Source of the DNA: Escherichia coli
GTDB taxonomy: Bacteria; Pseudomonadota; Gammaproteobacteria; Enterobacterales; Enterobacteriaceae
Length of the DNA stretch: 64,000 nt
Assembly: GCF_036507355.1 (NCBI RefSeq)
Contig: NZ_AP027877.1
Direction: 5' to 3' (one strand)
A model generated the notes under the pieces. That model did no database searches, was not told the origin of the DNA, and was given only the letters and a program-made list of their open reading frames with translations. Of this stretch, positions 58,621 through 61,344 are shown piece by piece (the first letter of the stretch is position 1; each line of letters begins with the position of its first letter). The translations under genes were made by a program, and so were the position numbers.

Positions 58621-59442
58621 ATGTCGTGTGAAGAACTGGAAATTGTCTGGAACAATATTAAAGCCGAAGCCAGAACGCTGGCGGACTGTGAGCCAATGCT
58701 GGCCAGTTTTTACCACGCGACGCTACTCAAGCACGAAAACCTTGGCAGTGCACTGAGCTACATGCTGGCGAACAAGCTGTCATCGCCAATTATGCCTGCT
58801 ATTGCTATCCGTGAAGTGGTTGAAGAAGCCTACGCCGCTGACCCGGAAATGATCGCCTCTGCGGCCTGTGATATTCAGGCGGTGCGTACCCGCGACCCGG
58901 CAGTCGATAAATACTCAACGCCGTTGTTATACCTGAAAGGTTTTCATGCCTTGCAGGCGTATCGCATCGGCCATTGGTTGTGGAATCAGGGCCGTCGCGC
59001 ACTGGCTATTTTTCTGCAAAACCAGGTTTCTGTGACTTTCCAGGTCGATATTCACCCGGCAGCAAAAATTGGTCGCGGTATCATGCTCGACCACGCGACG
59101 GGCATCGTTGTGGGTGAAACGGCGGTGATTGAAAACGACGTATCGATTCTGCAATCTGTGACGCTTGGCGGTACGGGTAAATCTGGTGGTGACCGTCACC
59201 CGAAAATTCGTGAAGGCGTGATGATTGGCGCGGGCGCGAAAATTCTCGGCAATATTGAAGTTGGGCGTGGCGCGAAGATTGGCGCAGGTTCCGTGGTGCT
59301 GCAACCGGTGCCGCCGCATACCACCGCCGCTGGCGTCCCGGCACGCATTGTCGGTAAACCAGACAGCGATAAGCCATCAATGGATATGGACCAGCATTTT
59401 AACGGCATTAACCATACGTTTGAGTATGGTGATGGGATCTGA
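58621..59442 (+). CDS. cysE: serine O-acetyltransferase
   Basis: 273-aa ORF MSCEELEIVWNNIKAEARTLADCEPMLASFYHATLLKHENL..., hexapeptide repeats. Confidence 0.95.
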   Translation: MSCEELEIVWNNIKAEARTLADCEPMLASFYHATLLKHENLGSALSYMLANKLSSPIMPAIAIREVVEEAYAADPEMIASAACDIQAVRTRDPAVDKYSTPLLYLKGFHALQAYRIGHWLWNQGRRALAIFLQNQVSVTFQVDIHPAAKIGRGIMLDHATGIVVGETAVIENDVSILQSVTLGGTGKSGGDRHPKIREGVMIGAGAKILGNIEVGRGAKIGAGSVVLQPVPPHTTAAGVPARIVGKPDSDKPSMDMDQHFNGINHTFEYGDGI

Positions 59443-59467
59443 CGTCCTGTGATCGTGCCGGATGCGA

Positions 59468-59500
59468 TGTAATCATCTATCCGGCCTACAGTAACTAATC
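59468..59500. repeat. REP-like palindromic element
   Basis: gccggatgcgatg...catctatccggcctaca, REP-type imperfect palindrome between cysE and trmL. Confidence 0.55.
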
Positions 59501-59968
59501 TCTCAACACCGCTCCCGGATACCCCAGCTGCCGCCAGGCTTCATACACCACTACCGACACTGCATTAGACAGATTCATACTGCGGCTGTCCGGCACCATT
59601 GGAATACGAATTTTTTGTTCAGCGGGCAGGACATCAAGAATGCTCGCTGGCAGGCCGCGCGTTTCCGGGCCGAACATCAGATAATCACCATCCTGATAAC
59701 TTACGGCGCTATGTGCGGGCGTACCTTTAGTGGTGAGGGCAAACAGGCGCTGGGGATTTTCTGCTTCGAGGAACGCGCTGTAGTCATGATGACGCGTAAC
59801 GGCGGTAAACTCGTGATAGTCCAGCCCCGCGCGGCGCAGGCGCTTATCGTCCCAGGCAAATCCCATCGGTTCGATGATATGCAGACGAAAACCGGTATTA
59901 GCGCAAAGACGGATGATGTTGCCAGTATTTGGCGGAATTTCTGGTTCGTAAAGTACGATGTTTAGCAT
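59495..59968 (-). CDS. trmL: tRNA (cytidine/uridine-2'-O)-methyltransferase TrmL
   Basis: 157-aa SpoU-family [30 protein letters not shown]... Confidence 0.9.
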
Positions 59969-59974
59969 ACTGCC

Positions 59975-60150
59975 CCCTTAGTGCGGGGGCAGGATAGCAG
60001 AAAATTGGTGAGCAGTGCGGCCTTTTCCCCTCACCCCGTAGGGGCGAGGGAGAAAAAAAGAGTGCGGTGTCGTTTCAGAGTGAGGGAGTACATACAGCGC
60101 CGAACGGTCCCCTCTCCCTGAGGGAGAGGGTTAGGGTGAGGGGGCGCAAA
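59975..60150. repeat. cluster of GC-rich palindromic intergenic repeats
   Basis: Several hairpins (ccccc-ttagtg-cggggg; cccctcacc...ggggcgaggg; ccctctccc-tgag-gggagaggg; ttagggtgaggggg) between trmL and lldD. Confidence 0.5.
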
Positions 60151-60153
60151 CAA

Positions 60154-61344
60154 CTATGCCGCATTCCCTTTCGCCATGGGAGCCAGTGCCACAGGCAACT
60201 CTTTACCCAGCCCCTGCACCAGCGAATCTTGCGTAATTTCGCTGATCGATTTCGCGCCAGTCAGCGTCATCGCCACTTTCATCTCTTTTTCGATCAGATT
60301 TAGCAGGTTAGCTACACCCGCCTGGCCCGCTGTTGCCAGCGCATACAGGAAAGCACGACCCAGCAGTACGGTGTCGGCACCGAGCGCAATCATACGCACG
60401 ACATCAAGCCCGTTACGAATTCCGCTATCCGCCAGAATGGCGATATCACCTTTCACCGCATCTGCAATAGCAGGCAGTGCACGGGCGGAAGAGAGTACAC
60501 CGTCCAGCTGGCGGCCACCGTGGTTAGAAACCACAATTCCATCAGCACCAAAACGTACTGCATCGCGCGCATCTTCCGGATCGAGGACCCCTTTGATCAC
60601 CATCGGGCCATCCCAGAAATCGCGGATCCACTCAAGGTCTTTCCATGAGATGGACGGATCGAAGTTATTCCCCAGCCAGCCGATGTAATCTTCCAGTCCG
60701 GTCGGTTTGCCGAGATAAGCTGAGATATTACCTAAATCATGTGGACGACCGTTCAGGCCCACATCCCACGCCCATTGCGGATGCGTCACCGCCTGCAAAT
60801 AGCGGCGCATTGCCGCGTTCGGGCCGCTCATTCCAGAATGCGCATCACGGTAGCGTGCGCCCGGTGTCGGCATATCCACGGTGAAAACCAGCGTCGAACA
60901 ACCCGCTGCTTTTGCTCGCTCCAGCGCGTTACGCATAAAGCCGCGATCGCGCAGTACATAAAGCTGGAACCACATTGGGCGCTTGATGGCTGGCGCGACT
61001 TCTTCAATCGGGCAAACGGAAACCGTCGAGAGAGTAAACGGAATGCCATGCGCGTCCGCCGCTTTGGCTGCCTGAACTTCGCCACGACGCGCATACATGC
61101 CACACAAACCCACCGGAGCCAGTGCCACCGGCATCGACAATTTCTCATTAAACAGCGTCGTTTCCAGGCTTAAGTCGGACATGTTTTTCAGAATACGCTG
61201 GCGCAGCGCCACTTCTGACAAATCTTCCACGTTGCGGCGCAGCGTGTATTCAGAATATGCACCCCCATCCATATAGTGGAACAGGAACGGCGGCAGAATG
61301 CGTTGCGCTGCGGCGCGATAATCGCTGGCTGCGGAAATAATCAT
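60154..61344 (-). CDS. lldD: L-lactate dehydrogenase (FMN-dependent)
   Basis: 396-aa [35 protein letters not shown]... Confidence 0.95.

Follow-up and report, generated by a model that had tools for sequence, protein, structure and literature searches.

What are the GC-rich palindromes that crowd the short interval between lldD and trmL in Escherichia coli, and do they act on the RNA of these genes? We analyzed a stretch of 64,000 nucleotides from contig NZ_AP027877.1 (RefSeq assembly GCF_036507355.1), hereafter called the window. A dense cluster of GC-rich palindromes had been reported here in the first-pass annotation, and it is confirmed: the lldD-trmL spacer (59969-60153, 185 bp) contains three GC-rich hairpins, and its minus-strand RNA folds at -79 kcal/mol (z = -4.4 against shuffles). 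The description of the two genes as convergent is incorrect. Both lie on the minus strand, co-directional and with lldD upstream, and the gene order is identical in K-12. The features of the region are as follows.

60154-61344, minus strand: lldD (L-lactate dehydrogenase), the upstream gene, with its stop codon at 60154-60156
60110-60143, plus strand: intact BoxC/TMECO unit of type A, identified by consensus match, by correspondence to TMECO #17 and HPG1 #43, and by its folds
60097-60109, plus strand: conserved 5' flank of type A units, GCGCCGAACGGTC, from an alignment of 20 BoxC units
60060-60096, no strand assigned: spacer between the back-to-back units, containing a weak copy at 60077-60096
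60023-60059, minus strand: decayed BoxC unit of type B, equivalent to K-12 TMECO #18, identified by K-12 alignment, a two-block match, its fold and its T-run flank
59991-59999, minus strand: extended -10-like motif TGCTATCCT, overlapping the 5' arm of the next hairpin by 2 nt
59970-59992, minus strand: locus-specific hairpin CTGCCCCC-GCACTAA-GGGGGCAG, which ends 1 nt before the trmL ATG and is not a BoxC unit
59495-59968, minus strand: trmL (tRNA 2'-O-methyltransferase), the downstream gene, with its start codon at 59966-59968

We interpret the cluster as one intact and one decayed BoxC unit placed back to back, together with a conserved hairpin that is unrelated to them and belongs to the trmL promoter/leader, and assign this explanation as a whole a probability of about 0.8. 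The repeat was named BoxC by Bergler et al. (1992), later PIT by Hoyne et al. (2000), and then TMECO by Holder et al. (2015; PMC4666352); Bachellier et al. (1999) and, for PIT elements, Hoyne & Maher (2002) provide further literature. BoxC, the PIT element, the TMECO triplex motif and the HPGQ G-quadruplex motif are thus already known to be the same element, and as the locus has been catalogued, the finding is an ordinary one. The consensus is CCCTCNCCC-N3-6-GGGNGAGGG-N3-GGGNGAGGG, and Table 1 of Holder et al. lists 23 K-12 copies (PMC4666352); 23-32 have been reported for K-12. Two of these, #17 and #18, are both in the lldD-trmL spacer (3781018-3781214), where #18 occupies 3781121-3781156 and is of type B (PMC4666352). 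Kaplan et al. (2016; PMC5100583) listed the same two sites as HPG1 #43 (3781038) and HPG2 #44 (3781145). BoxC was also recovered as a known E. coli stem-loop family by Petrillo et al. (2008), and it is present in hundreds of proteobacterial genomes.

The intact unit reads, on the plus strand, block 1 CCCTCTCCC (60110-60118), loop TGA, block 2 GGGAGAGGG (60122-60130), loop TTA and block 3 GGGTGAGGG (60134-60142) plus one G, i.e., TTA-GGGTGAGGGG. The first-pass annotation had found this hairpin and given its loop as TGAG; the hairpin holds, while the loop is TGA and the final G is part of the second block. The stem is 9 bp in both the DNA and RNA folds. In the 64-kb window, the two-block pattern occurs twice and the full three-block consensus only once, at 60110-60142, and neither appears in 100 dinucleotide-preserving shuffles. 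The unit 60110-60143 is letter-identical to type A TMECO #17 of K-12, CCCTCTCCCTGAGGGAGAGGGTTAGGGTGAGGGG (3781061-3781028), and is separated from the lldD stop codon by 10 nt, a gap listed as 11 nt for K-12 by Kaplan et al. (PMC5100583). It also has the 5' flank GC.C...CGGTCC that type A copies share when 20 units, taken from K-12 and other genera, are aligned.

A search of 5,426 complete E. coli genomes with the 45-bp unit 60104-60148 returned 92,243 places, spread over 5,408 of them, with a median of 19 per genome (range 1-35; 21 in a K-12 strain); only 76 places were plasmid-borne. The genome-wide search proposed earlier therefore excludes units unique to this locus, and the supposition that the palindromes belong to a known class of enterobacterial intergenic repeats can now be given a family name, BoxC, and two published catalogues that include the locus. 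That supposition applies to two of the three hairpins; the third (59970-59992) is not a repeat and is a trmL promoter/leader feature. The intact unit has the three-block consensus; its partner counts as a decayed member by alignment to K-12 #18. The family is dispersed and multi-copy, and the two units are intergenic, at a catalogued orthologous position. They also form an inverted A+B pair of the family's two types, which are defined by TTA (type A) or CCG (type B) loops and type-specific 5' flanks. The three blocks are highly conserved across BoxC copies and genera in the 20-unit alignment. In sequence, locus, intergenic placement, a copy number of about 20 per genome and hypervariable surroundings, the units in the window are the same as BoxC/PIT/TMECO. 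The arrangement of the pair differs from that of other K-12 pairs: the lldD-trmL units stand back to back with their hairpin ends facing, 59 bp apart in K-12, whereas in the other pairs it is the third blocks that face, with 16-27 bp between them (three pairs aligned; Table 1 for all four).

The second unit is decayed. Blocks 1 and 3 remain, as does the T-run 5' flank, which on the plus strand is A7 at 60053-60059. Such a flank is typical of type B units in the 20-unit alignment, and K-12 #18 has the CCG second loop. K-12 #18 reads CCCCTCACCCCGGCCCTCTCCCCGGAGGGGCGAGGG, while the window reads CCCCTCACCCCG followed, after a deletion of 12 bp, by TAGGGGCGAGGG. The direct repeat CCCCGG borders the deletion in the K-12 alignment, and a deletion bounded in this way is, as judged from the letters, a signature of slippage. 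With the middle block deleted, block 1 pairs directly with block 3 in a plain hairpin, CCCTCACCCC-GTA-GGGGCGAGGG (60028-60050), which matches only two consensus blocks and has a 10-bp stem with one G.T wobble (-13 kcal/mol, z = -4.2). Holder et al. (PMC4666352) termed such an outcome at paired sites the "palindrome effect". The window alone has a G-to-T change in the type B loop; over this stretch, identity to the closest of the 5,426 genomes is 98.5%. Between the two units, 60077-60096 is a direct repeat, a copy of block 3 and the 3' flank of the type A unit with 75% identity. The spacer as a whole is single-copy in E. coli (median of one place per genome by megablast). An Rfam covariance scan at permissive thresholds assigned no family to the spacer, with only chance-level matches (E of at least 0.5), and a promoter/terminator consensus scan of the spacer found nothing.

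As a side observation on unit #18, a radiation-evolution study (PMC11344242) lists four low-frequency to-G "variants" at K-12 3781140-3781152, common to all populations. These may be mapping or sequencing artefacts, given the approximately 20 near-identical G-rich copies.

The published in vitro structures of BoxC raise the question of whether the G-rich strand is a DNA switch, alternating between duplex, hairpin, triplex and G-quadruplex, that controls transcription of trmL or lldD. Consensus oligonucleotides form an intrastrand triplex in vitro by CD and NMR (PMC4666352), a cation-dependent G4-hairpin switch has been reported for HPGQ motifs (PMC5100583), and the motif is within what has been called the trmL 5' region. 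In the intact unit, 60122-60142 contains four G3 runs and fits the canonical G-quadruplex pattern G3N3G3N3G3N3G3, so that it qualifies as an HPGQ motif, the other name of BoxC. Blocks 2 and 3 are also, on inspection, in a register that permits nine triplets of the types G.G:C, A.A:T and T.A:T. However, the triplex was not detected in vivo by DMS footprinting (PMC4666352), and BoxC sites are unlinked to gene function, distance or orientation. In addition, the -10-like motif of trmL is approximately 30 bp from the nearest unit, and BoxC is missing from its vicinity in 27% of E. coli as well as in many species. The unit proximal to trmL has lost its middle block and can therefore form neither a triplex nor a four-run G-quadruplex, having too few G-runs, and compared with the TMECO pair in K-12 only one unit of the window is left for a three-block fold. 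We regard such a switch as quite improbable.

The surroundings of the units are hypervariable. The lldD-trmL spacer has at least five alleles among the 5,426 genomes, and 27% of the genomes lack the repeats. The genome counts below are approximate, being taken from bands of BLAST identity and coverage.

47 bp: empty allele without BoxC, 1,465 genomes (27%)
153 bp: allele in which a putative IS-end palindrome replaces the core, 792 genomes
185 bp: window-type allele with the 12-bp deletion, about 1,480 genomes
197 bp: K-12-type allele with two intact units, about 806 genomes
Various lengths: other alleles, e.g., one of 174 bp, in the remaining genomes

In the 153-bp allele, the core has given way to a 35-bp palindrome, CTGTCTCTTGATCAGGAGATCTGATCAAGAGACAG, with matches to the ends of IS4/Tn5-family transposase genes; on sequence grounds, the palindrome looks like an insertion sequence reduced to its two ends. 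In E. coli B-JRPT-4119 (L002, 786-820) and 791 other genomes, this palindrome has perfect arms, CTGTCTCTTGATCAG-GAGAT-CTGATCAAGAGACAG, and is located inside the BoxC pair.

Holder et al. (PMC4666352) found BoxC loci to be far more variable than control spacers. At the DNA level, direct and inverted 9-mers, which can form hairpin, triplex or G-quadruplex structures in single strands in vitro, would favour slippage and rearrangement. Slippage-prone 9-mers would make the locus an indel hot spot, and the CCCCGG-bounded 12-bp deletion in the window would represent one slippage event. We infer that BoxC causes the local instability, and the allele spectrum agrees with the published link. Since 27% of E. 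coli, and E. albertii, are without the repeats, any BoxC function is dispensable.

Outgroups were taken from genomes, one per species, with lldD-trmL synteny. BoxC directly follows the lldD stop codon, in the same orientation, in Kluyvera, Pseudocitrobacter, Superficieibacter and strain RIT691 (L027, L023, L008 and L021). Short spacers of 36-62 bp without BoxC are found in E. albertii, several Enterobacter species, Pseudescherichia and Kosakonia. Kluyvera and E. coli share the flank GCCGAACGGT and have the same unit type in the same orientation by the lldD stop codon. Two outgroups with short spacers, Kosakonia and an Enterobacter MAG, retain BoxC-like half-stem remnants there, CTCTCCCC...GGGGAGAG. 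The loci contrasted with the BoxC carriers were L007, L013, L015, L026 and L031, from E. albertii and others, in which BoxC is absent. In a separate observation, the spacer of Pseudocitrobacter faecalis (L023, 1004-1139) contains a 43-bp unit with the BoxC hairpin core repeated in tandem 3.2 times (95% matches), and this array sits between two full BoxC units. BoxC fragments can therefore expand as tandem arrays.

The K-12 allele, with two inverted terminal units around a 59-bp core, looks like a small non-autonomous MITE-like mobile element inserted in the spacer. The presence/absence polymorphism with 1,465 empty genomes, the dispersal of the family in intergenic regions and the recurrence of BoxC in the same spacer of Kluyvera, Pseudocitrobacter, Superficieibacter and strain RIT691 would fit such an insertion. 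We nevertheless rejected a MITE, because the spacer, including the core, is single-copy, and comparison of filled and empty E. coli alleles revealed neither a clean junction nor a target duplication. No transposase association has been found either. The unit type, orientation and flank shared by Kluyvera and E. coli, along with the remnants, instead fit old ancestry with repeated loss. An inserted mobile element is therefore unlikely, and the distribution, read from the sequences, suggests old BoxC occupancy followed by repeated decay and loss rather than recent transposition.

Can the hairpins act in RNA? The G-rich strand of the intact unit is the plus strand of the window; therefore, the lldD mRNA carries the C-rich strand. 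The first-pass annotation had suggested that the palindromes may be terminators or mRNA-stability elements and proposed RNA 3'-end mapping as a check. Such mapping exists for K-12: in the Term-seq data of Adams et al. (2021; PMC7815308), a "primary" lldD 3' end is located at 3781065. This position is 4 nt past the BoxC stem, immediately after GGGAGAGGGGACC, and corresponds to window position 60106 on the minus strand; the data come from K-12, a strain other than that of the window, and the number of reads ending there is modest, at about 1,000. The site has an intrinsic-terminator score of 1.32 (threshold 3.0) and a Rho score of 1.49, and it lies inside a significant Rho termination region (PMC7815308).

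The simplest use of such hairpins would be as Rho-independent terminators that end lldD transcription. The likeness to an intrinsic terminator is clear: stable GC-rich stem-loops come right after the lldD stop codon, and the first stem is followed 4 nt later by an RNA 3' end. However, the minus-strand stems are not followed by a T-run; the T7 run precedes the second stem on this strand rather than following it, and no site combining a hairpin and a T-run was found on either strand of 59969-60153. The published intrinsic-terminator scores of 1.32 and 1.92 are below the threshold of 3.0, and the genes are not convergent. Moreover, according to Hoyne & Maher (2002), as far as they are summarized by Holder et al. 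(PMC4666352), PIT elements act neither as promoters nor as terminators in reporter tests and do not affect RNA polymerase. Without a U-tract, the BoxC hairpin would not terminate transcription by itself. The terminator suggestion therefore fails on the lack of a U-tract, the sub-threshold score and the lack of reporter terminator activity, and we consider it very unlikely.

The role in mRNA stability fares better, in part: the K-12 lldD 3' end does lie 4 nt past the stem, while an effect on half-life is a further step, as a 3' end beside a hairpin does not imply that the hairpin prolongs the life of the mRNA. According to Adams et al. (PMC7815308), 3'->5' exonucleases trim RNAs that arise by Rho-dependent termination. 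We propose that lldD transcripts read into the spacer, where the C-rich BoxC strand would fold into a GC hairpin of 9-10 bp. Rho-dependent termination would occur further downstream, and 3'->5' exonucleases would then trim back and stall at the hairpin. The stalled exonuclease would leave the mature lldD mRNA with a 3' end 4 nt beyond the stem, in the manner of REP elements at other loci. By this analogy, an exonuclease stop that sets the lldD 3' end is the most likely role of the BoxC hairpin; we infer both the trimming and the half-life effect.

REP/BIME elements serve here as a working analogy, being dispersed GC-rich intergenic palindromes whose hairpins define and protect the 3' ends of upstream mRNAs. 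Their sequence is unrelated to that of BoxC, which also contains a third block and is not known to have a cognate transposase. Identity with REP/BIME was considered and rejected, as the REP-derived Rfam family naRNA4 matches only 59451-59486, outside the spacer.

Five other BoxC or BoxC-like copies in K-12 have 3' ends 3-5 nt past the stem (164636, 624567, 632098, 847200 and 3959467). The six copies, found in both orientations in supplementary file 1 of Adams et al., are examples rather than a systematic census of the 23 K-12 copies; they suggest that BoxC hairpins may generally define RNA 3' ends. The same observations could also be explained if the repeats were functionless, slowly decaying passengers, with the 3' ends an incidental by-product of any stable hairpin. 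No function has been assigned to BoxC, and 30 years have brought no report of a phenotype or an activity (PMC4666352). E. coli does without the repeats in 27% of genomes, and of the two units in the window only one is still whole. On the other hand, conservation of the blocks is high both between copies and between genera, hundreds of proteobacterial genomes retain the family, and the placement of the 3' ends is consistent at six copies. That the repeats are mere passengers is possible, though doubtful.

The wider proposal is that BoxC elements are general exonuclease-blocking determinants of the 3' ends of Rho-terminated mRNAs, with consequences for lldPRD and trmL, and that the ribosome-binding site of trmL is masked. 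Taken jointly, these claims are tentative, and we put them well short of even odds. If they were true, presence/absence and decay alleles would alter the stability of the lldPRD mRNA and read-through into trmL. The trmL hairpin would then mask the ribosome-binding site only in read-through RNA, insulating a housekeeping tRNA-modification gene from a lactate-induced operon. REP-like shaping of 3' ends by BoxC would have escaped the earlier reporter assays.

The third hairpin (59970-59992), which reads CTGCCCCC-TTAGTGC-GGGGGCAG on the plus strand, is a different kind of feature. It is present in every E. coli allele, including the empty 47-bp allele, and in all 55 Enterobacterales trmL upstream regions compared, whatever the upstream gene. 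Its 3' arm contains a Shine-Dalgarno-like GGGGG, and the adjoining TGCTATCCT is likely the trmL promoter, given its sequence: among the 55 sequences, three positions of the hexamer (the T, the A and the final T) never vary and the TG hardly does, an extended -10 pattern. Each of the 55 leaders folds into a stem of 6 bp or more (median energy -16.1 kcal/mol; median z of -4.2). In an arm-swap test, cognate arms folded better than swapped arms in 5,000 of 5,000 permutations, a result inflated by relatedness; by class, one of the three main arm classes had no advantage, and the arms differ between clades. RNAalifold on a MAFFT alignment of the trmL leaders returned no structure because the stem registers are shifted between clades. 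The hairpin has no Rfam family.

The trmL 5'-UTR clone of Adams et al. (PMC7815308) starts at GCACTAAGG, which is 7 nt after the -10-like hexamer; this cloning primer marks the presumed transcription start. With a start at GCACTAAGG, the promoter's own mRNA would begin inside the loop and lack the 5' arm. Only read-through RNA would then mask the GGGGG ribosome-binding site, and the feature may be a hairpin embedded in the promoter, with translation masked in read-through transcripts alone. A Term-seq 3' end at K-12 3781218 lies 5 nt after the trmL stem (Rho score 3.68).

The repeat family, its copies at this locus, the in vitro structures and the link with local variability have all been published. 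The value of the present analysis is chiefly in annotation: the cluster should be labelled BoxC rather than terminator, the gene orientation corrected, and the third hairpin set apart as a trmL promoter/leader feature.

Two further observations concern the neighbouring sequence. The segment 58821-59780, from cysE to two thirds of the way through trmL, has about 45 differences from K-12 (~4.7%), mostly at third codon positions, while the spacer and lldD differ from K-12 by at most 1%; over 59300-60160, no complete E. coli genome exceeds 96.3% identity. The segment looks like a recombined one from a lineage outside the collection. In the gap between cysE and trmL, 59451-59486 is a REP-type palindrome, GGCCGGAT...ATCCGGC, which matches Rfam naRNA4 partially, at 26 bits, below the gathering threshold.
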